Shown: positions 1 through 58,667, counted from the first letter of the whole stretch. The stretch: 63,648 bases of DNA, filler included, from Fonticula-like sp. SCN 57-25 (GCA_001724245.1; 11 parts of 11 records of this genome joined end to end with filler, not necessarily neighbours in it), one strand, 5' to 3'. Program-made: numbers and translations. Notes: a model not told the origin generated them from the letters alone.

Positions 1-465
1 CTGCCGGAAGCGCGCAATGTAGTTGCGGAGCGTGCGGATGAAGCGCTCGGCATGGACTGCTCCGATAGCCGTCGAGTACATGTTTACGTCGTGGTCATCG
101 GCCCACTTTTTTACTTGGGCGTTGTAAAACTCGGTTCCTTCGTCGACATGGAGATATTTTGGTGCAGCCTTTAATGAGGAGAGGGCGTCGGCGACGGCGG
201 CGGCCGACTTTTCTTTGAGCGGAATGGCGCGCACAAACCGCGAGTACACGTCGACGATAATGAGGAGAAAGCGCGTGGCCTTGTTTTTCTCTGGATGGAG
301 TGACGCCGTATCCATCAAGTCGGCAGACCAGATGTCGTCGGGGTGAGACGCCGGGATTGATTGATGTTTATAGTTCTTGGTCGTTTGACTGAACATTGCA
401 GCCGTGTGTTGGTCACCAAGTGCGTTCTCCACCTTGTCACGCAGTGACACCTTCTTGATTGACAT
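1..465 (-). CDS. Retroviral-like (rve) DDE integrase, Polinton type, 3'-truncated
   Basis: Manual translation from ATG 465: MSIKKVSL...PDDIWSADLMD...FLLIIVDVYSRFVRAIPLKEKS...PKYLHVDEGTEFYN...NMYSTAIGAVHAERFIRTLR. The D, D and E catalytic motifs are present. It runs off the window edge and is absent from the ORF track. Confidence 0.93.
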   Translation of the reverse strand, partial: MSIKKVSLRDKVENALGDQHTAAMFSQTTKNYKHQSIPASHPDDIWSADLMDTASLHPEKNKATRFLLIIVDVYSRFVRAIPLKEKSAAAVADALSSLKAAPKYLHVDEGTEFYNAQVKKWADDHDVNMYSTAIGAVHAERFIRTLRNYIARFRQ

Positions 466-5322: not shown

Positions 5323-5422
5323 NNNNNNNNNNNNNNNNNNNNNNNNNNNNNNNNNNNNNNNNNNNNTTAATTAATTAANNNNNNNNNNNNNNNNNNNNNN
5401 NNNNNNNNNNNNNNNNNNNNNN
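5323..5422. other. Artificial contig spacer (N44-TTAATTAATTAA-N44); same spacer at 10716, 16065, 21404, 32313, 37648, 42923, 48155, 53343, 58498
   Basis: Identical 100-nt N-runs with a central six-frame stop linker; genes are truncated at these points. Confidence 0.98.
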
Positions 5423-10638: not shown

Positions 10639-10815
10639 GTGCGTGGAGGAGAGAGAAGAATGGGAAGATATGGGAGGGAATTAAAGTGTTGATTGTCATT
10701 GTGTGTCATTGAGTGNNNNNNNNNNNNNNNNNNNNNNNNNNNNNNNNNNNNNNNNNNNNTTAATTAATTAANNNNNNNNNNNNNNNNNNNNNNNNNNNNN
10801 NNNNNNNNNNNNNNN

Positions 10816-16064: not shown

Positions 16065-17905
16065 NNNNNNNNNNNNNNNNNNNNNNNNNNNNNNNNNNNN
16101 NNNNNNNNTTAATTAATTAANNNNNNNNNNNNNNNNNNNNNNNNNNNNNNNNNNNNNNNNNNNNGGCGACCTGATGGCGGCAATCGGTGCCGATCGCCAC
16201 TCTGAAACAGTAGAAGCTTGAAAAATAGCGCAAAAGAGAGCGAGCGACAGTGGCCAGCCAGCGTGGTCTTTTGGCAAAATTTCACAGCGCAAATGACGGA
16301 GCGATGCGCAAGACCAGTCGCCGTCGATTGTGACAAATCACCTGAAATCGGCGATCGCCACTCTACCGCCAAAAGCACCAAAAAAGCTGCGCTAAAACTG
16401 AAACAAAATTCAGGAAAGGCGCGTGCCCTTTGCAAAAGCAGCGAGCGTCAGCAACATATTCAGTTTCAGTTGAACCGAGGGGATGCGAGGCCGAGCAACA
16501 CAACGACAGGATTGGGAAAATCGTGTGGGGATCTAGACACTGGCTACCGCTGCGCACCTTGTCGCTTTCCAGCGCCCGCTCGCACTGCTCGCTCTCGCTA
16601 TTAAACTCGCGAATTAAAAAGGCGTGCTTTTGGTCTCGGCCAGATGCGCATCGCCAGCTCAAAAGAGACAAACCGGGATCGTGAGAAGTGCCTGTTTGAA
16701 GTGGCGCGTGTCAGAAGAGGGGCCAAACAGTTGAGCAAAAAAAAAATTGGGATGGCCGAAAAAAAAGCAAAAAATGGCCATGCTGACCAGCGCGAGCGGA
16801 GCGCCGGCGCAGCGCAGTGGACACACAATCAGTTAATCGTGCATAAACAGTCACAACAGTGAAACACCCCCGACAGCAGCTACAACTAGATTTGACAAGG
16901 GGGTAATTTCCGAATGGGGTATGCAACACTGCGCGATCCCCGCGATGGGGATCGGTGTGCGCAGTCGGGTGCCAACGCAGGTGACCTTAGAGCAACGAGT
17001 CACCCCCAGACAATACCAAAAACACTTTGCCGCCACGTTTCACATGCCATGGAAGCAATAGATCCCGGGGGCGCGTCGGGTCACAGACATCGTCAACCAC
17101 CTGCCAAAAAAGGCAGCGTGTTGCGCGCCTCACCCGACGCGGCCCCCGACGCCTGCGCGCCACCCTGACCCTAGCCGCAGGTCACGCGCAGCATCATCCC
17201 GACACTCGGGCATCCCCAAACATCCCAGACTGCCCGACATCGCCATGATCCCCACACAACATCCATCACATGGCAGCGAGTGCGGAAAAAAAGCGCTCAT
17301 TAAATAACCCTTTGACGTACCTCGCGTGCGCAGTCGTGTTAAGGAAAGGCGGCGAGGCGGTGCGCCGAGGCTGAAAAGGCGCGCCGGCGTGGTCAGGGCA
17401 AAGGGAAAGGCGGCCAAAGGGAAAGGCGGCCAAATGCAATGGTGACCGCGCTACTGATTATAGTAATAGGACTTTTCTATACGGTTGCACGTGGCCGTGA
17501 AGCGGGGATGAACTGCGCTGATGCGGCTGGCGGGCTGCAATGTGATGTTGCGCTGTCTGAGCAGAGAAAATGTGCAGGCGCACAGTGAAAAGTCAAGTGA
17601 CACGTTGTACGTTGTATACAATTCTTTATTGATGATTCAAAGGAAACCAAAAAGTAAGCAGAAACATGTTTCAGACTGTGTTGCCATCGCGCGGTCGATT
17701 CCAAAGTCCACGTCACTGCATGACCGACGCAGACGCGGGCGACGTTGCCCGCGCGACAAACTTTTTTTGTACTTTAGGCCCAAAGCGGATGCGGCCGTCC
17801 GGATCGGGCCCAGCTGAGCAACTGGCGGCCAGCAGAACAGGTGGCATACCCCAGACTCTACCCCGGATTTGACAGGTGATCGCCTTCGGCGAGCAGGCGC
17901 CGAGG

Positions 17906-21038: not shown

Positions 21039-21503
21039 TCGGGATCGGTGGTGGATCGGGATCGGTGATGGTGCTTTTGAGTCTGTTTATACGTGATTGT
21101 CTGTAATTATCAATACAACACTTGAGGTGCAAAAAGTTTCTTTTTATGGACGATAAACATAGTAAAGTTATGTCGATTTGCTATATTAGTAAAAAAAAAT
21201 CATATCAAAATACGGCATTTTTTGGCACTTTGACACACTAGTTCATATCAATCCGCCATATTAGCCATAAAATCCTCATCAAAATACATGCGTATCATAT
21301 CGAGTCATAAGAAATACTGTACACGTCATCACTTTTTCTATCCCAAAACGGCCATCTCGAATGCCTGCTGCTCCTGCTCCGCCGTCATATTCACTGTACT
21401 ATCNNNNNNNNNNNNNNNNNNNNNNNNNNNNNNNNNNNNNNNNNNNNTTAATTAATTAANNNNNNNNNNNNNNNNNNNNNNNNNNNNNNNNNNNNNNNNN
21501 NNN

Positions 21504-32308: not shown

Positions 32309-32412
32309 CGTCNNNNNNNNNNNNNNNNNNNNNNNNNNNNNNNNNNNNNNNNNNNNTTAATTAATTAANNNNNNNNNNNNNNNNNNNNNNNNNNNNNNNN
32401 NNNNNNNNNNNN

Positions 32413-33466
32413 AAACCAGGTGAGCGTGTTGGCGACAGCAGAACTGGTGTGCAAACAATGGCTCCGTATTGTCCAGTCGAACAATGCACAAATCAATTTG
32501 TGGCTTTTTTTCGCAAACCAAGAATTGGGCTTGATGGCCAAGAACTTAGAGGTTCAACATGTAAAACAATATGTGATGATGCATTGGGCTACTTTTCACA
32601 AGGTGGATCTTGAAAAGGCATTTGAATGGCTGAAAAATGAGAGAATCAAGAATGGAACCATTCCCGAACTTCGAGTTTGTGTAATTGGTGCTGGTGGATG
32701 TGGCAAGAGCAATACTGTCATTCGCTTTGTTTCGAATCAGTTTGTAGAAGAGTAAGTCATACTACTCCTTGCAGATCATTTCTTTTTCATTTCAACTAAC
32801 GAAAACACAAAACTGCCTCAGTTATGATCCATTGATCGGTTCGTTAAGCTGAAGCCCTATCATCTTGTTTCTCACCTAAACAGAAGATACATACAGAAAA
32901 CAAGTTTCGCACAGAGATATCCCGTTTATATGTGAAATATTGGATACAGGCAAGTTATAGCATATTTGATAAAAATTTGTGTGATTATATGTAATTAGGT
33001 GGGACTGAGGATTATAGGGCATTACGAGGTTTGAATAATGCGGATGTTATATGCATTCTTGTTGACAAATTTATCTTTAGATTGGATTCATAGATTCACT
33101 AATGCAATCATCCTTGTATGCTCTGTAGACAAAACAGACTCATTACTAAAAGATGGAGTTGATAAATTCATTCCATTTATCATCGAAACGATGAAAATAC
33201 AGTCTATTAAATTTATCCCATTTATTCTTGTGGTAAACAAGATAGACCTCCCATTAGAGAAACATGTAATCTCTGACAAGATTATTGAAGAGCAGGTGAA
33301 AAAATATGGAATACCAGCTTGGACAAAGATAAGCTGTTTACAAGATATTGGAGGACCAGATGTGTACTCAAATTTAATCGACCAGATGGTGAAGAAACTG
33401 TATTGGGAGCACCTGTTGCGCAATGTAGAGAAGACACGGAAGAAGAAGAAATGCCAAATGATGTGA
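32413..33466 (+). CDS. F-box-Ras-family GTPase fusion with CaaX, 5'-truncated
   Basis: F-box tail LATAELVCKQW...LW; spliced GTPase GAGGCGKS, YDPLIED, DTGGTE, NKID and C-terminal KKKKCQMM. Confidence 0.8.
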
Positions 33467-33825
33467 ACAAATCAACCATTGGGAAGCAATATGTGAAATT
33501 GTATTGGTCATATGTTAAAACAAATCAAAAAAGTTTAAGCAAACAACAACAACTCTTCTGAACATTGATGTAGCAAAGATATAATTCTTTCATTGTATGT
33601 GTTGGCATTTGTAACTCATTGTTGAGTGAGTAGTAATTACTAGGAACAAATCGTACAACCACACTTGATAACTGTAAAACTTGGTGCTACTTCAACACCA
33701 GATTTGTTGAATGTTGAGTGCCCTGGTTTCATACAATGCGAATACCAACTGATACACATGAAGAAAACAAATTTTCGCACGAACTTACAACCACTCCTCA
33801 CTCACAAAAACCATTAGTTGACTAG

Positions 33826-35940
33826 ATGATGCTTTCTTTGCAGGGCGCATACAAACGACTCGTCCTGCTCAAAACAGCAAGGAGGACAGCATTGCCGTTT
33901 CTCACACTACAACGCAAGAAATCCAGCAAATTTTCACAGCCGCCTAGCGGCATTACTGTCCCGCAATCACGCAATCACAACAATAGTTCACCTCTGCAAT
34001 CACGCAACAAGAAGAGCAATGACATCTCTCCTGCAAACAGAAACACTAGCAATGTTAGAAGAAACGTTGACAACATCAACACTTACGATACCAACAAGAA
34101 TGGAAACGATGACATGTTTCTGCCAAGCGACGAGAATGGCAGAATGGAGGACGAAGAAGAAGAGATGGAGGAGTACAAGGGGAAAGAATTGCAGAATGAC
34201 GATGATAAAGGACTGCAGAATGATGAGAAAAGATCGCATAACGATGAGTACACTCAAATCGAGACAGATATTCGCCAACTGCTGCGAAGTAAGAACTGCG
34301 AGAGGGCGTTTGAGGTGTTCATGACACAGCGTGCAGCGGGAGAGCAATTTGGGGCCAAATTGTATGCATCTCTCCTGCAGCATCTCGTGGAGAGGAGCCA
34401 GTTCGCAAAATTCCAGCAGGCCTTCGAGTGTCTCCAGGAGGACCAAATACCACCAAACGAACACATCCTATCGTCAGTCATTGATCATCTCTGCACCCAG
34501 GGTAAATTTGCAGCACAACAAGCAATGGCAGCACAGTTATCACCACGCGTATCAACACAAGAATTAGCACAGGAATCAGTTCAAGAATCAGTACAAGAAT
34601 CAGTACAAGAATTAGCACAGGAATCAGTACAGGAATTAGCACAAGAATCAGCACAAGAATCAACACAAGAATTAGTACAAGAATCAACACAGGAATCAAC
34701 ACCAATATCACAGGTAGTATCAGCAGAACCACAATCACCATCACCACAACCAGTATCACCACCATCAACAAAAGTAGAATCACCAGTAGCACAACAAGCA
34801 CAAGTAGAATCACCAGCACAGATAGTTTCACCACAACAATTATCACCATCACCACCACCACCAGCAGCACAAACAGTATCACCACCAGCACAACAAGTTG
34901 CACTTGAGTATGCAAACCAGGCTGAACTCCTGCTGAAGCAGATGCTCGAGTACAAGATTATTCCGAACCCGAGGGCTTATACATCACTTGTGAGCTGCAT
35001 GCTCACAGCGGGACAGCCTGAACGAGCGATGCACGTAATCTCGCTAATGTCTCCCGGTAGCAAGTACACGCAGCAGCAGCGAGCATCCGTTGCGAGCCAC
35101 TATGCGCGCAGCGCAGTTGCCCCGGGGGAGATGGAGCGTATTGACAATGCGGAGCGCATGGCCCGCGAGTTGCACAGAGAGGGTGCCCGTTCGTACGCCC
35201 GCTATGTGTACAATAGCATCGCGCAGCAGCTGTTTACCCTTGGTGTCATGGGCCGCGCGCACGAAACGCTGCGCTTCATGTTCTCGCAAAAGTGGAATCC
35301 GTCTGTCGGCGTTTGGTTCGCTGCAGTGGACTCAACACTCAATAGCGGTGATCTGGAGACAGGTAGTCGTCTGTTTGAAAGATATTCCCAGTACAACAAG
35401 ATCGCAGAGGTTGTAGCAGAGTCGTTTATTGCAGCTCTTTGCCGCCAAGGTTTGGTCAACCATGCACTACAATGGGTGGTCAGGTTGAGGAGGGAGAAGA
35501 GGTTCGTTCCGAGCCGCAGCATTTACACCTTCCTGATTGGAGGCTTCACGCAGCTTGGCGATCCTGGAAATGCTGAGCAAGTGCTTCGCGTGATGCTGAA
35601 TCAGGCCAAGGCCAAAGTTGGTGGACAGCCACCGCTAGGCCACTACAACATTGTCTTGGAGGGATACGTTGTGCAAAGGAATCTCCGTGACACAGAGAGA
35701 CTGTACTACGAGATGAAGTCTGCTAATTTGGTCCCCTCTGTGCGTGCTGCTTCTTTCCTCATGGAAACCTTTGCGAACAGAAACAATGTGGAAAAGATGG
35801 AAAAGCTACTTGAGGAAATGAAAGTGAGGAGAGCTGATCTCTCGGTCCCTCTTCTTTCCACGCTTGTCCGCGTTGTAAAGAAGCCGCATCTCGTCAAATT
35901 TTGTGAAGGACAACTGAGACGGCAAACCAAAAGTTCTTGA
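33826..35940 (+). CDS. PPR-repeat protein, probably mitochondrial
   Basis: Basic N-terminal presequence; 35-aa PPR-like units (AYTSLVSCM, IYTFLIGGFTQLG, HYNIVLEGY); Q/E/S/P low-complexity insert. Confidence 0.8.
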   Translation: MMLSLQGAYKRLVLLKTARRTALPFLTLQRKKSSKFSQPPSGITVPQSRNHNNSSPLQSRNKKSNDISPANRNTSNVRRNVDNINTYDTNKNGNDDMFLPSDENGRMEDEEEEMEEYKGKELQNDDDKGLQNDEKRSHNDEYTQIETDIRQLLRSKNCERAFEVFMTQRAAGEQFGAKLYASLLQHLVERSQFAKFQQAFECLQEDQIPPNEHILSSVIDHLCTQGKFAAQQAMAAQLSPRVSTQELAQESVQESVQESVQELAQESVQELAQESAQESTQELVQESTQESTPISQVVSAEPQSPSPQPVSPPSTKVESPVAQQAQVESPAQIVSPQQLSPSPPPPAAQTVSPPAQQVALEYANQAELLLKQMLEYKIIPNPRAYTSLVSCMLTAGQPERAMHVISLMSPGSKYTQQQRASVASHYARSAVAPGEMERIDNAERMARELHREGARSYARYVYNSIAQQLFTLGVMGRAHETLRFMFSQKWNPSVGVWFAAVDSTLNSGDLETGSRLFERYSQYNKIAEVVAESFIAALCRQGLVNHALQWVVRLRREKRFVPSRSIYTFLIGGFTQLGDPGNAEQVLRVMLNQAKAKVGGQPPLGHYNIVLEGYVVQRNLRDTERLYYEMKSANLVPSVRAASFLMETFANRNNVEKMEKLLEEMKVRRADLSVPLLSTLVRVVKKPHLVKFCEGQLRRQTKSS

Positions 35941-36447
35941 AATTTACTTTCTCTTCGGTCGTTACCTCTCCAATCTGCCCCAAACAATTAACAGCTAACA
36001 AGAACGATTCTGACCGTTGCTCTTTAACGTGTAACATGTCTCAATTGTTCTGATAATCACCACTGCTGAACATCCTGTAATCTTCGAGAAACACAGTAAA
36101 AGCCTTGTAGATTGCGTAGATATTTCAGAAACAAAAAAAACCAACAAATTTTTCCAGTTTCTTCAAACATTAGTAAAACAATATGATCATTGTAATGTGG
36201 ATTTTGTCACTTTTTCAAATGCCAGTGTAAAATATCAGACGACTGTAACTTTAGAGTGAGAACACAATTCACAATTCTGTTTGTTTTTCATCGATACCGC
36301 GAAAGAGGAATGCACTGGATCTTTTGCATTCGGTTCTGAATGGGAAAAATTTGGAGAGAGAATAACAGAGTTGATCACCATAGTTGACCCGTTCGAGAAC
36401 CAAACGCAAACAGCGCAACCCATTCCGAGATGACCTTGCAGACGAGA

Positions 36448-36715
36448 ATGCTATTCAATAAGCTCACCCGTTTTACGGCGAGCAACAGTTTGTGGAGAGC
36501 ACGTGTGCTGCCCAAATTCCAGAAGAGAAATTCTGGAGACGAACACGCCGAAGATTTCCCCCAGGACGGCCCAGGTACGCAACATTTGTGAGACACGCGT
36601 TCAATTCACACTCCATGCAGGAGACATTGTGTTCCCCATCGCGTTGGCCATTCCAATCTCCATGTTCTTTTGGTACGGAAAAGACGAAGATGAAGCAGAA
36701 CCAGAAGCAAAATAA
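36448..36715 (+). CDS. Small spliced membrane protein with presequence-like N-terminus (~73 aa)
   Basis: MLFNKLTRF...KRNSGDEH...GPG, intron 36575-36620 (GTACGC...GCAG), then DIVFPIALAIPISMFFWYGKDEDEAEPEAK*. Confidence 0.6.
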
Positions 36716-36924
36716 AATGTAAAAAAAGAGGGAAAAACACGAAATTGGCAAACAGGTGATGCAGTGATTATTTGGTTTTTTTCTTGTTGCATTTTTTTGC
36801 TTCATAGAGCACTTGAATGATTGTCTTGCACTGTTTGTTGTACCTGTTTCTTGTAACAGATTATGTGTTCACTGCTTCTTTCACAATGTACATTCAGTGT
36901 ATCTGTTTCACATTGGATATTTGT

Positions 36925-37465
36925 TCATCTCTTTTGGTCGTACAAGCGTGTGGCCCAATTGGGTTCGCCATGTGCTTCGTCACCCCATCCATCTGGACCC
37001 TCTCTATCGACACGCCGTCTCCCGTTGCTCAGTTTCAGCACGAGTGCGTCCATTTGACGAACGTATTCGAGACGACGACACGTTGGTATCCAGAAGCGAA
37101 CAAGCGACTGCTCCGTGTTCGGGAGCATGTGGTGCTCGAACACCTCGTGCACCATGAAGCGCACAAACTGCTCCTTGAGGTGCTCGAGACCCACAATTCC
37201 TAGACTCTTGAGGATCCGCGTGACGCGCAGGTAGTTGTGGAAACTGGCGTTCAGGTGCGCGTACCGGCTCTGGAAGTGCTGCGCGCGCGCGAGCGAACCG
37301 GAGTGCGCGTCGGTGAGAGTGATGCCGAAAAAATCGAGCATTAGCTCGTAACTCGCGATGAATCGGCGCTGAATGTCGGCATCGGTGCGCATCAGCTCTG
37401 CCTCGTGTCGCGTGAGAGGCTGTGCATTATCGTTCATCCCGCGCTCTCTGATCGGAAATAGCCAC
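36925..37465 (-). CDS. OGFr-like (opioid growth factor receptor conserved region) protein, last exon
   Basis: QWLFP..E.GMN..AQPLT, YELMLDFFGI and HNYLRVTRILKSL. Confidence 0.88.
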
Positions 37466-37747
37466 TGCAAGTTGTTATTCGTTGGTTATCACACTTTTGT
37501 TTTTTTTTTTTTCACAATTATACCCAGTCACACATCCAGTCACACACATCCGGTCACACATACTCACACACATACTCACACACATACTCACACACATATC
37601 CAGTCACACATATCCAGTCACACATACTCACACATCCAGTCACACACNNNNNNNNNNNNNNNNNNNNNNNNNNNNNNNNNNNNNNNNNNNNTTAATTAAT
37701 TAANNNNNNNNNNNNNNNNNNNNNNNNNNNNNNNNNNNNNNNNNNNN

Positions 37748-42275: not shown

Positions 42276-43022
42276 GCGTTGTGCATTGGACCATAGAATT
42301 GTTCATAAGAGTTTTTCAAGTGTACATACTTTCCTTTCACAAGCAATTTCTCCATTGTAAACTCACTATTGTAATGAGTACATGTAACAATACATTCTTT
42401 TGCAACAGTTTTTGTGGGATAAGAGCACACGAAAGAAGAATGAAGGAAAGAAGAACAAACACAAGAAGAAACAACTGGCTGCAATGATTGAAGAACGAAA
42501 AAAGCAATATCTCCCATTTGATGCTTTGTTGAAATCAAAGAAAACACGTTATGATCAAAATGGAAAAGCCGTCTTCTCAACTCCATTCAGATAATCCAAA
42601 TAACATTCAAGCAAACAGCTGTAAAGATTGACAATTCATTGTGAAAACAATGACAATTTCACAACATGACAGTGAACCACAAGAGAGCAATACACGAACG
42701 CAATAAAATCAAGGGATTAACTTGTTTTTCATTTACCCAAGAAAATGAACTGTTGAGTCTGTAGAAGAAAAATCTGCTGATGCTGAACAGGAACCTCAAG
42801 TTGTGCCTTCACAAGAGCGAAAGAGGAAGAGCAAGAAACTCTCCGAAACTCCTCAACGAAAAAAAGTAGTCAACCAATTACAGCAACTTTAATTCCGCGG
42901 AACTGAGCGCTTTTCAGTCCCCNNNNNNNNNNNNNNNNNNNNNNNNNNNNNNNNNNNNNNNNNNNNTTAATTAATTAANNNNNNNNNNNNNNNNNNNNNN
43001 NNNNNNNNNNNNNNNNNNNNNN

Positions 43023-43518
43023 CTTTTTCATTGGGAATCCACGTAATAAATTCTTCCACAAAAAGAGGAATCATAAAATGTATCACTTTTGACACAATGT
43101 ATGATGATACTCCAAATCTTGACGAGAGCTGACAAATCTTTTCATTTTGACAGAGCCAGATCAGAGTCATCAAAATCTTGTTTTCGTACGACACGCTGCT
43201 TTCTGTTTCTGAAGCGCGAGGTTGAAACCTTCTCAAGAGGTGGAGAACTTCGTCAAAATCTAACCTTGACATGTGAACCACGCTTTGGAAGTGACTTGCG
43301 TTGCGGCACCACTGCTTGTAGACGTCTACCCGATCGTACGGATGATAAGATTGTTTGAATTTTCCCCTTCCTCTTCCAATGTTTGTTGTTTTCGCCTCCC
43401 AGATGAGATAAGGAGGGAATTGGATTACTGGATCCTTAATTCCAAAAAGTAGTGACAGGAGAATCATCTGGTTTTGCAAAAGTATCGCCAACAGACAGAG
43501 GTTTTGTTTTTCCATCAT
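43023..43518 (-). CDS. Harbinger/ISL2EU-type transposase, N-terminal part (HTH)
   Basis: HFQSVVHMSRLDFDEVLHLL...VSYENKILMTLIWL...LSSRFGVS..IVSKVI, a typical DDE_Tnp_4-associated HTH; the catalytic part is cut off by the gap. Confidence 0.8.
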
Positions 43519-43598
43519 GATTCTCAGAGCAAGTTGAGTGATTTTTCACTACTTATCCAATTCTAACACATTGTTCCGTCAATTCACAAAACAAGAGC

Positions 43599-44393
43599 AT
43601 GAACAGTCAAGAAGAACCAGAGGTTGAAGAAATCGAGATGGGATCAGCAATTCAGAATGGTAAGAAGAAGCAGCACAGGGCAGTTTGGACAGAAGACAAG
43701 GTCAAGGTTTTGGTAGAAGCTTATCGGTACGAGAAAGGGAATTGGGAAGCAATAATGAAAAATCCGAGAGTAATCGAACTCGGATATGACAAACCTCAAC
43801 TCCAAAATAAAATAAAGACCATCAATGGGAAAAGAATCAGGAAAACTTGGAATGATTCCGGAACCAAGAAGCGCGAGAGCATAGTCAAAAATATCCATGG
43901 TGATACAGACAAGGATGAAGAACATCTGCAGAAGAAAAGGAGAGAGTTCTCCGCAGAAAAACTTTCAGAAGAAGAGAAGGCCCTAGAAGAAGTTGAGGAG
44001 GCGCAAGTATCCAGTGCTGTTGATAGTTCAAGCTTTTCCACCTCTGGAGAATTCGAAGACTATGCAGAAGAGGAGAAGACAAGAAGAAAGAAGCAAAGAT
44101 TAACATTTCAAAACATCTCCAACCAAAAACTACAGGCCATTCAAGCGATCCATGATGAACAGGAACAAAACAAGGTGGAAAGAGCAGTCAATGCTCTTAA
44201 AGAAGGAACATTGATGCAAACTTTGGAGCTCAATCAAATGATGTTGGCAGAGCTCTTCAAGAACATTCGGAATGAGCGATCACAACCAGATGATAATCTA
44301 AAAGAGGAAGTTGAGAAGATCAAGCAAGAACAAGAAATTGTGCTCCTCAAGTTATCCAGAATCGAGGAATTGTTAACAAAGCAAAAGGAATAA
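43599..44393 (+). CDS. Myb/SANT-like DNA-binding protein (Harbinger ORF2)
   Basis: WTEDKVKVLVEAY...NWEAIM...QLQNKIK followed by a charged coiled coil. Confidence 0.78.
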   Translation: MNSQEEPEVEEIEMGSAIQNGKKKQHRAVWTEDKVKVLVEAYRYEKGNWEAIMKNPRVIELGYDKPQLQNKIKTINGKRIRKTWNDSGTKKRESIVKNIHGDTDKDEEHLQKKRREFSAEKLSEEEKALEEVEEAQVSSAVDSSSFSTSGEFEDYAEEEKTRRKKQRLTFQNISNQKLQAIQAIHDEQEQNKVERAVNALKEGTLMQTLELNQMMLAELFKNIRNERSQPDDNLKEEVEKIKQEQEIVLLKLSRIEELLTKQKE

Positions 44394-44665
44394 AATTCTA
44401 ATCGATTAACCCAGTTAAACTATAAACATTTGTGATGAACCGAGTTTAATCTTAGTTAACTCTAGAGTAACTTCAACCACCAACCCAGTTTGCTGCATAA
44501 AAGGTTAACTAAAGTTTAAAGTTTTTACTAAAGTTTAATTTGTACCCACTTGACTAAACTATGCAATATCAGAGCTTAGAAGAAATGAAAAAATAAACAA
44601 ATTGAGAGGAATTGAAGTTAGTGAAGCGAATGGTGATTGGTTGGGAACAAAAATATAAAAAGGTT

Positions 44666-44745
44666 TGTGGTCAGAGGGGTTCGAACCCTCGCCCGTGAAG
44701 AATGGTGCCTTAAACCACCGCCTTAGACCGCTCGGCCATGACCAC
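44666..44745 (-). tRNA. tRNA-Leu(AAG)
   Basis: GTGGTCA acceptor stem pairing with TGACCAC; D arm TGGCCGAGCGGTCTAAGGC; anticodon arm GTGGT-TTAAGGC-ACCAT; variable arm; GGTTCGAACC; T-run Pol III terminator downstream. Confidence 0.96.
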
Positions 44746-44869
44746 TTGGATGAAATAAGTGTCTATATTTTTTATTGAAATAATTATCGCAAACTGGGAT
44801 TGTTGTTTGCCATTTTCCCTGTTTTCTGTGGGACAACCCTCCTCAATTTCCAATTTGTTCACAAGCTGT

Positions 44870-46817
44870 ATGAGCCACCACCACACATTCTGGCTGCAGT
44901 ACTTCAAAGAACGGCAGCACGACCCGTTCACACTACTCCGTCACACGAGATCTGCAATCGCCCGTTTCGATGCCCAATTCCATGCCCTAGTATCCCTGAA
45001 CCCAGAGCTCACTGAGCACGCTGCACAAGCGCAAGCGCAACACAACTCCAGTGCAACAAGAATTACCACCACCATTGCAAATGCAAACAATGTCAAAACG
45101 AATGTTAATAGTGCTGGTGCAAACGTCAACAGTGTTAGCAGCGCAAATACGAACCACAAATCCATACTCAACCAGAATTCCCGTTACAACTACAGTTCCA
45201 CCAATTTCTGGAACGGTGTACCTGTCCTCCTCAAGGACAATTGTCTCACTGAAAACTGGCCCACCTTTGCAGGAGTCGCAGCGTTGGGGCGGTACCGCGC
45301 CCGTAGTTCCGCGTCGATTGTGCGGAAGCTGCGCGAGAGCCATGCGGTGATCGTCGGGAAGACGAACGTGCCGCCGCTCTGCATGGATGTGCAGTGCGCG
45401 AATCGCGAATTTGGGACCACGAGCAACCCGTTCGACGCGACCCGCACCAGTGGTGGATCGAGCGGTGGCTCGGCGGTCGCAGTTGCCCTGGGCTATGTGC
45501 CTGTTGCCCTGGGATCGGACCTGGCGGGCTCCCTTCGCATCCCGAGTGCGTTCTGTGGTGTGTGTTCCCTGCGACCGTCTGCAGGTAGGATTCTGGCAGA
45601 TGCTCACGTATGTGTGACATTATGTGTGTGGAGGATGTACAATGTGACATTGTGTATGTGGAAGTATTCATTGGGTGTGACACTATGTGTAGTGGAAATA
45701 TAGAATGAGTGTGACATTATGTATGTGAAGATATACAGTGGGTGTGACATTGTGCATGTGGAAATATAGAATGAGTGTGACACTATGTGCAGTGGTTTCA
45801 TGTATGTGACAATGTGTGTTTGTTTTTATGCACAGTGATTCTGTAACATTGTGTATAGTGATTTTGTGTGGCTCTTGTACAATGGTTTTGTGTGTAACAG
45901 TATGTGTGTGTCGGTGTTGGAGAGAAAGTGTCTACTACTGGTACCCACTCAATAGATTCCACCAAGTCCAGCAGATGAAGAGGAGCAAGATCTAGAGAAG
46001 AAGGCATTGTTCCAGTGTGACATGTGTGTAATAGGTCCTATTGCCATTCGAGTGGAGCTGCTCGAACAGTTCATGGCACACTTTTCGAGCAAATTTTCAC
46101 AGCAAGTGTGGCCAAGTAGTGTTCCAGTGAGAGTTGCGATAACTCCATGCTTCCCCTCGATCCCTACAGATGCTCGGATCATCCAAGCTATGAAAGAACT
46201 GGGCACTACTCTCCAATTGGGAGGACATGTGGAATGTGAGTTTGTTGTCCCTCCACTTGACTTAGATGAGCTTCGTGAAGCATATCTTGAGCTCTGCAAG
46301 CCTTTTGCCTTGGCAGAAGCTGCCATGAACAATTCCCCACTCACACCGTTTCTGCCCAATGAAAAGAGGCTCAAACAGGCTCGTGCTGTGATCCAAGAGG
46401 CACACCAACTCTTGCAGGAACACATTTTCTCCAAGTTTGATGTGTGGATTATGCCAACTACTCCTGTACCTCCTTTCCCCCACAACCCAAAGCACACTCC
46501 GTTACAATTTTTGAATGAGCATGGAAACACTGAATGCATGAGTTATTGGAAGGTGATTTCCTATTGTACCCCAATCTCTACCCTGGGTAACCCAGTTGTG
46601 ACATTGCCAATGGGGATGATTGAGCACTTACCCTTTGGGGTACAAGGTATTGATAGCAATCAGTGTTTTGCTTACTGGGTTTTTCTTGTGTGACACTTTA
46701 GTGATTGGCCAACTCGATCAAGATGAGAAGCTCTTGGCTGCCTGTAGAGTATTGGAGCCCTTGGGTCTCGCAAAGATGCGCTGGCCATCACCCACGATGA
46801 TTGAATCGAAACTGTAA
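44870..46817 (+). CDS. Amidase-signature family enzyme, 3 exons
   Basis: GVPVLLKDN, GKTNVP, GGSSGGSAVAV, GSDLAGSLRIPSAFCG, LGNPVVTLP and LPFGVQ|VIG. Confidence 0.93.
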
Positions 46818-46957
46818 CAAAACATCTCAAAACTATTATCATTTTATGAGTGACCTGTGAAGGACTGCATCCAATTGAAAAAACACAAATCCATCGGTTT
46901 ATTTGATCTACCATGTGGAAAAGATTACCAGAGGAGATATGTTTTACATGAAATGAT

Positions 46958-47921
46958 CTATTGTTCTTTGATAGTGCTATTCTTGTTCATGTGTAATTCA
47001 ATAATGGCAGCAGTGTTCTTGGTCTTTGCGACATCTTTTGCTGTTTGTTTCTATTGTGCAAACAAGAATGGTGGATTTCATTGCTGAGACAAGAACAAAG
47101 TACCTTTTCCTATGACGAGTGTGAGGAACTGTTGGCTGGTAAACAACTTGCTATTTCTACATACATTTGTTATAGTCGGGTCTACACCCGTGTTCAACAA
47201 GTACTCCACAATCTTATCACTTCCTCTCTCGCTTGCAGTATGCAAGGCAGTATCTGTTGGGACAGAAAGGTCAAATGGTTAAATTTTCTCATCTACCTGA
47301 AATTTCCAAACCTTCCCAACTGTTCAGTGCATTCAACTCGACACCTGGATGCTCAGCAATCGTTTTCACGAGCTCCAAATTGTCATAACAGCAAGCCAAG
47401 TGCAGGGGAGTCTACAAAATACAAGTGTGAGCAGGTGTGTTCATCGTAAGGCGCAGCATACCCACTGTTTTATGTGTGTTAGTTGGCCAGGGCAATGTAC
47501 GCTACCCCCTTGTTCTGTGAAAAAGTGAGTGTGCGGAAGAAAATGTATGGAGAAAAAAAAAGTGTAGATTTGAAAAAGTGCAAAAAGGGTGCAGATTCAT
47601 GTGTTAAAAAAAGTTGTATCATGCATGAATGAAAAGGTACCTCTTTCGCATTGACGTTAGCCCCTTTGCTGAGCAAGTATTTCACAAGTTCAATACGTTT
47701 GAAATAAACTGCAAAGTATAGTGGTGTCTTTTTGAGTGCATGGTTGGTGCAACTGAAGCGCGACATTACGAACATACTTTTAAAGATTAGTAAAATGTGA
47801 CAAACACACATTCACGTACGAGTACGGTAGGTTGGACAGTGTTGACGTCTGCTCCCTCTTTTTCAATACACTCCTTGACTCTTTCCAGGTTCCCCTTCTT
47901 CGCAGCTTGCAAAATGTTCAT
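46958..47921 (-). CDS. Small ankyrin-repeat protein (~163 aa), 9 exons including four micro-exons
   Basis: Exons 47921-47820, 47776-47774, 47727-47641, 47514-47506, 47464-47462, 47411-47312, 47253-47165, 47109-47104 and 47050-46958, all joined by GT-AG introns, restore ankyrin motifs (Y-TPLY, NKG-W-TPLH, DTALH, EK-KQTA). Confidence 0.85.
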
Positions 47922-48254
47922 TCGTGGTAAAAAAAAACGACGAACAGTGGTTGAGTTGGATTCAACATTTTCGTGGAAAATTGCGGCAATTTCACACTCT
48001 GTAAATTTATGGCAAACACTGATAAATTTTCACACGGAAAAATGAATTGGTTGATTTCGTTTGTAACCTTCTTATCGTTGTAAACGTTGAAGTTCTTGAA
48101 CACAATAGTTCACTGTGCAAAAAGTCTGTACGTTGGTTGGCTTGGCCACGAATTNNNNNNNNNNNNNNNNNNNNNNNNNNNNNNNNNNNNNNNNNNNNTT
48201 AATTAATTAANNNNNNNNNNNNNNNNNNNNNNNNNNNNNNNNNNNNNNNNNNNN

Positions 48255-50760
48255 TAAAAAACAAAAGGTTCAGTTAATTCACAACAAATGAAAAGGTATG
48301 ACAAACAGCTGTATCGCGAACATGCCAGGCAACCAACTGTTGATTTTTGGAATCAATGGTTGCAATAAGAGGTAATGTTGGATGTGAAGAAATAGCAGTC
48401 ACAGGACCACAATGGCCAGTAAAGGTGTCAATAAGTTGCAAATTTGGAGTACCGCTTCGCGATGCCCCTCTTCCAATGTTCAGCTCCCAGCATGACAAAC
48501 TTCCATTCTTGCTGTGAACATAAAATGTGATCTTATTGGGGGTCAGATAACCAAGGTCAATCTACAAATCAGAGTGAGAGTGGGTTGTTGCAGTTGAGAG
48601 TTACATACCGCTTGATTTTCCGAAGTCTTGTATGGCTTGTAATACATGAAAATATTAATCGCATCGGTCAGCTCCTTTAGGATCTTGGGCATTCTGATCC
48701 AAGTGGATGATTTTGGAGTACGTCTGGGAAAATCAGCAAGACCTTGAATAACGTCAATGGTGAATGAGCCATCAGGTTGAATCATGGAGAGCCAGGTGTG
48801 TGATTCTATCAATCCAGTATCTGAAGAGGCGCCAATATAGGCCACAGATTCCTCTGAGGCATTGTTTTCCTCATCTCCAAGTTGCAAATCATGGTGTCCT
48901 CCGTTGCTGCGCTGCTGGAGCTTGTCTTTCAAGTAATGCAAGATGAATTTGTTGGGGCTATGAATTGGCCAGTAAAAGTGACAGTTACGACAATACGAGC
49001 TTGATGGGACAGACTTACCTAATCTCATGCGTGGTGTTCAAAATCTTTGCGAGCAACGGGGTGTCCTTTTGGACTGCATAGCAAATGTGGAACTGAAGCT
49101 CTTCTGTCTCGCTCGTTTCGCTCCACATGCGGATCACGTGGTCTCGAGCACAAGTTACAAGAACGTTGGCAATGAACTTGCGCTCACTTTGTACTACTTA
49201 GTCTCACAAGCTCTCTCGCACATACACACAAAATTCAACAAACTTTTGCACAAACTCGCGTTTTCTCCATTGAATGGACTTGACTGCAGTCGGATGGGGC
49301 AGGTACATGTAAGCGTAGAGGAAATTGTTTCCATCCTTGTCACTCTTACTATTCTCATTCTCATCACCCACCATTTGTTCAGCATCCTGTGAATCGTTTG
49401 GGTGTTGCTGTTTATCTGAATGGTTCTCAAGGTGGTCCTTGTTGTCGTAGTCGTCTTCACCATCATCATCATCATCAACATCATTATTATTACCACCCAG
49501 TTCCTTCCTTCTTTTCTTCATATACAGTTTCTCTTGGTCCTGTATGCGCGATATCCGCCTTTGTGCCTCTGGAACGTTCTGTTTGTACCAGACCTTCACC
49601 ATACGATCGTGATGCGCAATGGTTGCAAAGAATCGCTCGTCAGGCGAAAAAGAACAGTCAAAAACTGGTGTTGCATTCTTCACTCTCCAGAGTAACTGCC
49701 ATTTCTGTGTTTGTTTGTTTGTTCAAGTGGCAAGTGGTGTCAGTAATCTTTTGCACGCGCACACACACATTATTGTCACACTTGTTCGCACAATGGTATC
49801 ACACTCATGCATCAGATGCACTCCACACAAGAATAATACAATGTTTACATTTACACTTATATTCACTTACATTTTCACACCTTTATCACGTTCACACATT
49901 TTCACACATCACATTCGAATCACATTCATATATTTTCACACATTTTCACACATTTTCACACATCTCCACATACGTTTATGTTTGCATTTGAGGGATGTTC
50001 CTTGTACTCCCATAGCATGGAGTCTGGACCACCGAGGAGCAGACGTGTGCCACTGGCGTTCCACGCGAGACACGAGATATCGCAGTCCTGGAGGGGAATG
50101 AGGGAGTGCTGGCGCAGCTGCACCTTGCGGTCGTCAAACAGGTAGTCGCCTTCGCTCAACGGTTCGTACACGATCACCCGTCCAGGACAATACACGGCAA
50201 GCTACATGTGTGCGAATGTGTGTGTGCGTGGGTGGGTTATGTGCATGTACGTGTGTGAATGTGTGAACGGAAGAAATAGTTTCAATTTGTAAAATTCCAA
50301 TAGTTGATTCAAATGTGAAAAAAAACCAGTCGCGCGATAGTTGTGAGTGGATATTGCAAGTGGACATTGCAAATGGTTGTGAGTGTGAGCAACAATGGTC
50401 GAAGGAACGTACTTTTGCAAATGGCTCGCACCACGCGACGCATGTTACAAGGTCGCGTTCACTCGCTCGCAGCAGTTGCACGCATTTCCCTCCATGGTAG
50501 ACGATCACATTGTTTGCGCTCGCATAGGCCTGAGTTCGTTTCGACGATTCACTCCCAGTTAGCATCGCTGATAATTTTGGGGCACCAAAAAATAACAACA
50601 ACAACAACATTCTACACAAAAACAACAACCTAACAACACAACAACAACTCTGGAAACGCACTATTAGCTCCTCCCCCTCGTGAATGGCCCAAGAAAACGC
50701 CTGGCGATACGGATTGATCGATCCAGGGATGACCTGATGAGGTGGGTATTGGTCTTCCAT
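48255..50760 (-). CDS. RAV1: RAVE/Rabconnectin-3 alpha (Rav1/DMXL) WD40 protein, 5' part
   Basis: HQVIPGSINP, AYAS, FSPDERFFAT...DRMVKVW, YMYLPHPTAV..IQWR and GSLSCW. Confidence 0.8.
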
Positions 50761-53253: not shown

Positions 53254-53442
53254 TAATAAACTGTAACAGCTCTTGGTTAACGTTAAAAAAGCAGACAACT
53301 TTGGAACTGTCACAATTGAGTTGACAAGGCCAAAGAATGTTCNNNNNNNNNNNNNNNNNNNNNNNNNNNNNNNNNNNNNNNNNNNNTTAATTAATTAANN
53401 NNNNNNNNNNNNNNNNNNNNNNNNNNNNNNNNNNNNNNNNNN

Positions 53443-58497: not shown

Positions 58498-58667
58498 NNN
58501 NNNNNNNNNNNNNNNNNNNNNNNNNNNNNNNNNNNNNNNNNTTAATTAATTAANNNNNNNNNNNNNNNNNNNNNNNNNNNNNNNNNNNNNNNNNNNNAAG
58601 ATTTGAAAATCGCATGCGTTTAGGGTCTTTCCTTTTTCGTATAATTCCATTTTATGGGTCCCCACTC

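Follow-up and report, generated by a model that had tools for sequence, protein, structure and literature searches.

Candidate exons of 3-9 nt at the repeat-loop tips of an ankyrin gene with short introns

Organization of the locus and of the ankyrin gene

The window, meaning here the whole stretch of 63,648 nt of DNA that was analysed, comprises 11 contigs joined by N44-TTAATTAATTAA-N44 spacers, which rules out a single locus. Ten of the contigs measure 5.05-5.32 kb and one 10.8 kb, and with the exception of the 10.8-kb contig they are ordered by falling size. GC content ranges from 0.43 to 0.59, with six contigs at 0.43-0.46, and the bin thus possibly contains more than one organism. The spacers are located at:

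5323-5422, 10716-10815, 16065-16164, 21404-21503, 32313-32412
37648-37747, 42923-43022, 48155-48254, 53343-53442, 58498-58597

The ankyrin gene lies on the minus strand of contig 43023-48154 (5.1 kb; GC 0.43), which also carries an amidase gene (Pfam PF01425) and, at 44666-44745, a tRNA-Leu(AAG). Within 43024-44390, a fragment with a weak match to a DDE-transposase HTH domain (PF13613, 22.9 bits, below the cut-off) is faced by a 271-codon charged ORF that displays no Pfam match. Parts of 44199-44573 recur in other runs at high depth and with unlike flanks, suggesting a repeated element. The intron of the amidase gene at 45660-45960 (plus strand) is long and packed with short tandem repeats rich in GTGTGA/AATGTG, and the long intron of a WD-repeat-like gene at 49700-49990 (minus strand) is likewise rich in them. 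The DNA occurs in runs X1, X2 and X5, and near-identical sequence of the ankyrin contig was identified in Logan contigs of runs from other studies (among others 47615-48143 and 47158-47400 in X2; 47630-47780 in X5); this near-unchanged recurrence indicates that the contig is no assembly artefact. Two single-base differences within the gene, at positions 47757 and 47847, were observed in contigs of four DNA runs, a number too small to test conservation. The nine runs listed included no RNA run.

The gene model comprises nine exons and eight introns, with 163 codons followed by a TAG stop (492 nt of coding sequence). The exons and introns, all on the minus strand and given in their order in the gene, are:

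47820-47921 (-), exon 1 (E1), 102 nt, 34 codons; carries the start codon and the helix pair that caps the N terminus
47777-47819 (-), intron 1, 43 nt; donor GTACGT, TACTAAT branch motif, ends at the next AG
47774-47776 (-), candidate single-codon exon TAT (Tyr), 3 nt; phase 0-0
47728-47773 (-), intron 2, 46 nt; donor GTTCGT, without a well-placed branch motif
47641-47727 (-), exon 3 (E3), 87 nt, 29 codons; ankyrin repeat, Ank 4-31 (+1), E 1.3e-7
47515-47640 (-), intron 3, 126 nt, T-rich; CTCAC branch motif, CAG acceptor 10 nt further on
47506-47514 (-), putative 9-nt exon AACAAGGGG (Asn-Lys-Gly, NKG); phase 0-0, Ank positions 33, 1 and 2
47465-47505 (-), intron 4, 41 nt; donor GTAGCG, AACTAAC branch motif, CAG acceptor
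47462-47464 (-), putative single-codon exon TGG (Trp, W), 3 nt; phase 0-0, Ank position 3
47412-47461 (-), intron 5, 50 nt; donor GTATGC, GCTCAC branch motif, T-run, TAG
47312-47411 (-), exon 6 (E6), 100 nt; ankyrin repeat, Ank 4-32, ends in phase 1, donor GTTTGG
47254-47311 (-), intron 6, 58 nt (43 nt with the alternative E6 donor)
47165-47253 (-), exon 7 (E7), 89 nt; ankyrin repeat, Ank 4-32, E 7.5e-7
47110-47164 (-), intron 7, 55 nt; donor GTATGT, CCTCAC branch motif, TAG
47104-47109 (-), putative 6-nt exon GAAAAG (Glu-Lys, EK); phase 0-0, Ank 33 and 1, last hairpin
47051-47103 (-), intron 8, 53 nt; donor GTACTT, no clear branch motif
46958-47050 (-), exon 9 (E9), 93 nt with the TAG stop (46960-46958) counted in; half-repeat that caps the C terminus

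Every main exon is open and has a positive coding score. E1 starts at the first in-frame ATG after a stop and its residues 6-28 correspond to Ank 9-30 in a weak Ank/Ank_4 match, while E9 by itself yields no Pfam match. Alternative donors were identified 6 nt upstream of the E1 donor (exon end 47826) and 15 nt downstream of the E6 donor (GTAGAT; exon end 47297). The gene is taken to be intact and to encode a protein of ~163 residues with four to five ankyrin repeats, in an uncultured eukaryote with short introns. The length of intron 3 is a multiple of three and the intron lacks an in-frame stop, so its retention would add 42 residues and keep the frame; a prokaryote-style gene call that spans it exists in the protein collection (P0001).

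Counting coding exons of at most 30 nt as micro-exons, the four candidates, TAT, NKG, TGG and EK, are flanked by AG and GT and keep the reading frame. A sequence-only reading had proposed single codons framed as AG-TAT-GT (47776-47774) and AG-TGG-GT (47464-47462), together with a 9-nt exon and a GAAAAG exon, and all are present on the minus strand, the latter two at 47514-47506 and 47109-47104, respectively. Its description of CTAAY branch points ahead of TAT and TGG agrees with the CTAAT and CTAAC motifs found there, the 41-50-nt flanking introns it gave for these two codons measure 43/46 and 41/50 nt, respectively, and the phase 0-0 it ascribed to all four micro-exons is borne out by the gene model. 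The flanking introns of NKG and EK extend over 126/41 and 55/53 nt, respectively. Branch-type motifs precede TAT, NKG, TGG and EK (CTAAT, CTCAC, CTAAC and CTCAC, respectively), and in all four cases the next AG past the motif is the proposed micro-exon acceptor; the distance from motif to acceptor AG is 9 nt for CTAAT (TAT exon) and 13 nt for CTAAC (TGG exon). Use of the micro-exon acceptors without the donor that follows would break the frame. The donors that follow TAT, NKG, TGG and EK are GTTCGT, GTAGCG, GTATGC and GTACTT, respectively. Several donors of the gene are weak (GTAGCG, GTACCT, GTACTT), and introns 2 and 8 have no well-placed branch motif.

Small exons are also found in a Ras-like GTPase gene on contig 32413-37647, which belongs to the same bin and has a similar GC content, with the reservation that the bin may be mixed. 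Two large pieces of this gene match Pfam Ras 2-26 and 71-160, and positions 27-70 are filled only via three small exons. They include the following:

32822-32838 (+), 17-nt exon; required to keep the frame and to cover Pfam Ras 27-33

The 17-nt exon is preceded by a 70-nt intron (counted from the sequence) and followed by a 45-nt intron, and skipping it would shift the frame. The donors of the Ras-like gene are GTAAGT, GTTCGT, GCAAGT and GTTTGA; the GTTCGT donor, used after the 17-nt exon, is the same as that of intron 2 of the ankyrin gene, and the next intron starts with GC (GCAAGT). The resemblance of GTTCGT and GTTTGA to the ankyrin donors indicates that donors like the weak ones of the ankyrin gene are indeed used. 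On contig 53443, a calponin-homology-type gene, named from reading its translation, has introns of 53, ~210 and 37 nt. An automatic intron finder based on flanking coding scores returned 113 candidates, mostly spurious, and was dropped; since it was too noisy, about seven introns in the bin were curated by eye.

Fit of the micro-exons to the ankyrin repeat and to chance expectation

The alignments of exons E3, E6 and E7 to the 33-position Pfam Ank profile (PF00023) begin at position 4 and stop at 31/32; their E-values lie between 1e-7 and 4e-6 and their scores are 31.9, 27.1 and 29.6 bits, respectively, against a curated cut-off of 21.1; E1 scores 16.6 bits, under this cut-off. Thus, about four residues per hairpin would be missing if the micro-exons were left out. 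NKG and W together add exactly four residues, and EK with the first two codons of E9 also adds four. With the micro-exons, the repeat periods are 33 (E3 with NKG and W), 34 (E6, using the GTTTGG donor) and 33 (E7 with EK and two E9 codons), while the spacings without them are 29 and 31, so that a period of ~33 residues is obtained only when the micro-exons are included. Among 150 ankyrin proteins collected as a reference set with E6 as query, a choice that biases the set towards 34-residue repeats, spacings of 33-35 were observed in 415 of 496 repeat pairs, 32 in 9 and 29 in 2, with a mode of 34. In 64% of the reference hairpins the residue two places ahead of the Thr is Gly, which is where the Gly of NKG falls.

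Splice variants of the ankyrin gene were scored by phmmer against the 83 of the 150 reference proteins that have at most 1000 residues, averaging the 30 highest best-domain scores:

All micro-exons, 56.2 bits
Without TAT, 58.6 bits (top score; TAT costs 2.4)
Without W, 54.0 bits (W worth +2.2)
Without NKG, 50.0 bits (NKG worth +6.2)
Without NKG and W, 49.0 bits (pair worth 7.2)
Without EK, 55.9 bits (EK worth +0.3, neutral)
Downstream E6 donor GTAGAT, 49.2 bits (7 below the GTTTGG donor)

These scores speak for NKG, for W and for GTTTGG as the donor of E6, are neutral for EK and mildly disfavour TAT. The sequence-only reading had held that the hairpin residues complete the ankyrin consensus. 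For NKG and W this is sustained by Pfam coordinates, spacing and phmmer scores, as well as by the environmental genes described below; EK is compatible with the consensus without adding to the score, and TAT adds an extra residue, the analogy with the environmental genes being what speaks for it. On balance, NKG and W are very probably real exons and EK is likely one, while TAT, the least certain of the four, is somewhat favoured as an exon.

The doubt about TAT gives rise to an alternative, which we consider rather unlikely, in which NKG, W and perhaps EK are exons and TAT is not: E1 and E3 would be separated by one intron of 92 nt, or the acceptor ahead of TAT would serve as a decoy and lead to an unproductive transcript. 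The direct join of E1 to E3 is already canonical, because residue 28 of E1 corresponds to Ank 30 and residues 32-34 therefore occupy positions 1-3; with TAT, hairpin 1 exceeds the Pfam register by one residue. The top score of the variant without TAT (58.6 vs 56.2) and the lack of a well-placed branch motif in intron 2 point the same way. Against this, the AG of TAT is the next one after a near-consensus TACTAAT, at a distance of 9 nt, and a 92-nt intron would need to ignore it. One extra loop residue is, moreover, common in ankyrin proteins, a spacing of 34 being the reference mode.

How often such arrangements arise by chance was estimated by shuffling. When the interior of the putative single intron was shuffled in 20,000 trials, an internal AG-NNN-GT with a branch motif appeared in 0.4-1.9% of trials for the TAT site and in 0.5-1.2% for the TGG site. 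Between E3 and E6, an in-frame chain with a length of exactly four codons was obtained in 7% of 3,000 shuffles, a figure that falls to 0.17% with Gly as the third codon, and a 6-nt exon at the last hairpin was obtained in 8.8% of 5,000 shuffles. A loose scan for paired intron-like segments 1-20 nt apart, which has no power, revealed 51 in the six low-GC contigs compared with a mean of ~100 in a baseline of 30 block shuffles. Paired intron-like patterns are thus common by chance, and the motif argument alone carries little weight. This frequency of intron-like double signals, together with the 7% and 8.8% returned by the shuffles, favours an explanation in which the micro-exons are chance AG..GT pairs inside longer introns, the gene then encoding repeats of 29-31 residues or being a decaying copy that makes no protein. 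Such an explanation is nevertheless improbable, since a spacing of 29 was found in so few reference repeat pairs, a Gly at the conserved loop position is rarely reproduced by the shuffles, and the main exons are without exception open and coding-like. As the splice motifs alone are not distinctive, it is the agreement with the ankyrin repeat, together with two loci outside the window, that carries the case for the micro-exons.

Runs of single-codon exons in two environmental ankyrin genes

Orthologues of the ankyrin gene were sought through its neighbouring amidase in a metagenome scan, in which 49 patterns matched and none was confirmed. Protein searches with the 110-codon ankyrin frame returned only its own match among 5 candidates, and the comparison of the 40-codon E6 frame with longer proteins gave no match among 3 candidates. 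As no orthologue was found, the architecture itself was sought in metagenome contigs, using a pattern of AG-TGG-GTA, a 28-58-nt gap, AG and a degenerate Thr-Pro-Leu-His-x-Ala. The sequence-only reading had suggested looking for AG-NNN-GT ahead of TPLH in other ankyrin genes of the bin. Of the 6 loci from the metagenome scan, 2 are ankyrin genes, termed L001 (2,399 nt; GC 0.24) and L004 (1,106 nt; GC 0.22), both on unannotated contigs of an AT-rich eukaryote. The remaining four (L002, L003, L005 and L006; GC 0.39-0.74) lack an ankyrin frame and were discarded as chance matches. A search for the train pattern in prokaryote genome contigs gave at least 120 loci, and the 120 screened (L007 onwards) were bacterial repeats without ankyrin exons.

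The four 87-nt exons of L001 and L004 each correspond to Ank 4-32 of 33. These exons are parted by single codons, three or four in a row, every one preceded by AG and followed by GT. The introns extend over 32-44 nt, run from GT to AG and have mostly GTAAGT donors. The codon runs are:

L004: GAT, GAA, TGG (three codons) and ATT, GAT, GGT, AAT (four codons)
L001: AGT, TTG, GGT, ATG (four codons)

The 29 codons of the main exon plus four single codons complete the 33-residue period. GGT (Gly) is the third codon in both four-codon runs, and Asp, Gly and Asn of L004 match the most frequent residue of the 150-protein reference set at the respective positions. The same TGG single-codon exon is found ahead of TPLH in L001 and L004. 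Codons with an intron on both sides measure exactly 3 nt in 13 of 13 cases while intron length varies, which argues for selection on spacing and against a single repeat-unit intron; two further candidate single codons are located at the contig ends. The typical hairpin residues encoded between the introns (Asp-Gly-Asn), and AG and GT that stay invariant between introns of 32 to 44 nt, also speak against the chance-pair explanation considered above. Both genes carry, in addition, one single-codon exon that follows the N-terminal exon and precedes the first Thr-Pro-Leu-His exon, at exactly the place of TAT, which tells against an E1-E3 junction without TAT.

An alignment of the repeat units reveals intron homology both among the repeats and across L001 and L004, with AG and GT invariant and the single codons variable. 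Three codon-plus-intron units are present in the hairpin at L004 698-788 and four at L004 948-1069 and at L001 (reverse complement) 2099-2223, the difference in number being a clean 41-column alignment gap, as if whole units had been gained or lost. Identity between L004 and L001 is 77/87 for the main exon, 117/145 for the introns and 6/12 for the single-codon exons, the last being a rough value that covers 12 bases with the last codon misaligned. Upstream of the ankyrin gene, L004 encodes at 2-211 (plus strand) a Tesmin/TSO1-type CXC domain (PF03638, 31.2 bits) with a TAA inside the domain, and the closely related L001 has a 250-codon ORF without in-frame TAA or TAG. A sequencing error, a recent nonsense mutation or the reading of TAA as a sense codon could account for this in-domain TAA of L004.

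L001 and L004 are non-orthologous to the window gene, and their micro-exons occupy the same repeat positions. The micro-exon boundaries of the window gene, at Ank 32/33, 1/2, 2/3 and 3/4, all fall within the boundary set of the trains (32/33, 33/1, 1/2, 2/3 and 3/4). The GC content of 0.22-0.24 in L001 and L004, compared with 0.43 in the window contig, was counted against shared descent of the layouts.

Proposed splicing, known micro-exons and significance

Taken as a whole, the repeat fit and the two environmental genes point to repeat-loop tips of the window gene being encoded on exons of 3-9 nt, a reading to which we assign a probability of roughly 0.7. At least three of the four micro-exons would probably be included in the main mRNA. 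In the proposed organization, each main exon would encode the two helices of one repeat, and the hairpin-tip residues would reside on separate micro-exons, hairpin 2 having one of 9 nt and one of 3 nt, hairpin 4 one of 6 nt and repeat 1, probably, one of 3 nt ahead of it. The 41-58-nt introns may be recognised singly across the intron (intron definition), in which case exon length would not be limiting. A 3-nt exon would leave no room for two side-by-side spliceosomes, so neighbouring introns would have to be removed in sequence. The main mRNA would keep the micro-exons and encode regular repeats of 33-34 residues. We infer that inclusion is constitutive, that splicing is ordered and that the layouts may share common descent. 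The layout of the window gene may represent a partly fused form of that of L001 and L004, in which each hairpin codon has its own exon. The arrangement suggests an inherited unit, formed by an exon and its micro-exon train, that may have spread by tandem duplication and later been thinned by intron loss; separate gains would be the other route.

The sequence-only reading had also raised combinatorial skipping, in which real micro-exons are left out in regulated combinations to give proteins with hairpins of differing length and residues. Phase 0-0 throughout means that any subset stays in frame, the single codons are the most divergent part between L001 and L004, one train is shorter by a 41-nt unit, and differential splicing is recorded for schistosome micro-exon genes (DeMarco et al. 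2010, cited in PMC10526429). We nevertheless regard such regulated skipping as very unlikely: loss of NKG or W would produce spacings that are rare in nature together with lower scores, so the products may fold poorly, and divergence of loop codons, here seen in a sample of 12 bases, is expected without any variation in splicing.

Very small coding exons are established in other systems. In plants, APC11 and VPS55 have 1-nt exons, and adjacent exons of 5 and 12 nt are found in rice (PMC8831610); in fungi, the Fusarium P450 CYP621A needs a 1-nt exon (PMC12940212). Such micro-exons are reported to be far below the size suited to exon definition, to be needed for the correct protein, to have GT..AG introns of the ordinary kind on either side and to escape annotation as a rule, similar to those proposed here. 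They were validated by RNA-seq and RT-PCR and appear singly or in pairs at one site, whereas those of the ankyrin gene are predicted from sequence to recur at the equivalent position of each repeat, and L001 and L004 carry runs of three or four single codons. Schistosoma micro-exon genes (MEGs), as described in PMC10526429, likewise combine many tiny exons in one gene (3-81 bp, between long introns), and for them a link to protein variation by differential splicing is on record. They encode secreted, largely unstructured proteins of an animal and have introns of up to 5 kb; in contrast, the introns described here are 32-58 nt long save one of 126 nt, the encoded domain is a folded repeat and the micro-exons are confined to hairpin tips. 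The alternatively spliced 3-nt micro-exon of Drosophila homothorax (PMC7392893) and the 3-, 18- and 22-bp micro-exons of human RPS24 (PMC12207440) illustrate that single-codon exons exist and may change protein function. They are described as isolated, regulated cassette exons of long-intron genes that employ exon-definition helpers, unlike those of the ankyrin genes, which have near-minimal flanking introns and, to judge from sequence, would probably be constitutive. No description of hairpin-periodic micro-exons in a repeat protein, or of runs of consecutive single-codon exons, was found in the open-access literature searched. Very small coding exons being established, it is the hairpin-periodic placement and the single-codon runs that appear to be new.

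Provided that the micro-exons are real, such genes would be misread by standard gene finders and short-read aligners, with shortened ankyrin repeats as the prediction. Runs of single codons between 32-44-nt introns would be among the tightest splice-site packings known, and would provide a natural substrate for studying the order in which neighbouring introns are removed. By itself the window gene constitutes an annotation trap, while the trains of L001 and L004 would surprise splicing specialists. Loop tips are among the randomised contact positions in designed ankyrin binders, and the placement of micro-exons at these tips raises the question of whether exon structure helps the loops to vary. 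A wider proposition, and as a joint claim a decidedly speculative one, is that some protist lineages keep a heritable ankyrin architecture in which each variable hairpin-tip codon is its own exon between near-minimal introns, the codon-plus-intron units being gained, lost, replaced and possibly skipped, with the window gene as a partly fused member. Were this true, trains of 3-nt exons would force a strictly ordered, zipper-like splicing and offer a test of how close splice sites can be, and the binding loops of these ankyrin proteins would change more rapidly in evolution than the remainder of the repeat, or vary inside a single cell.
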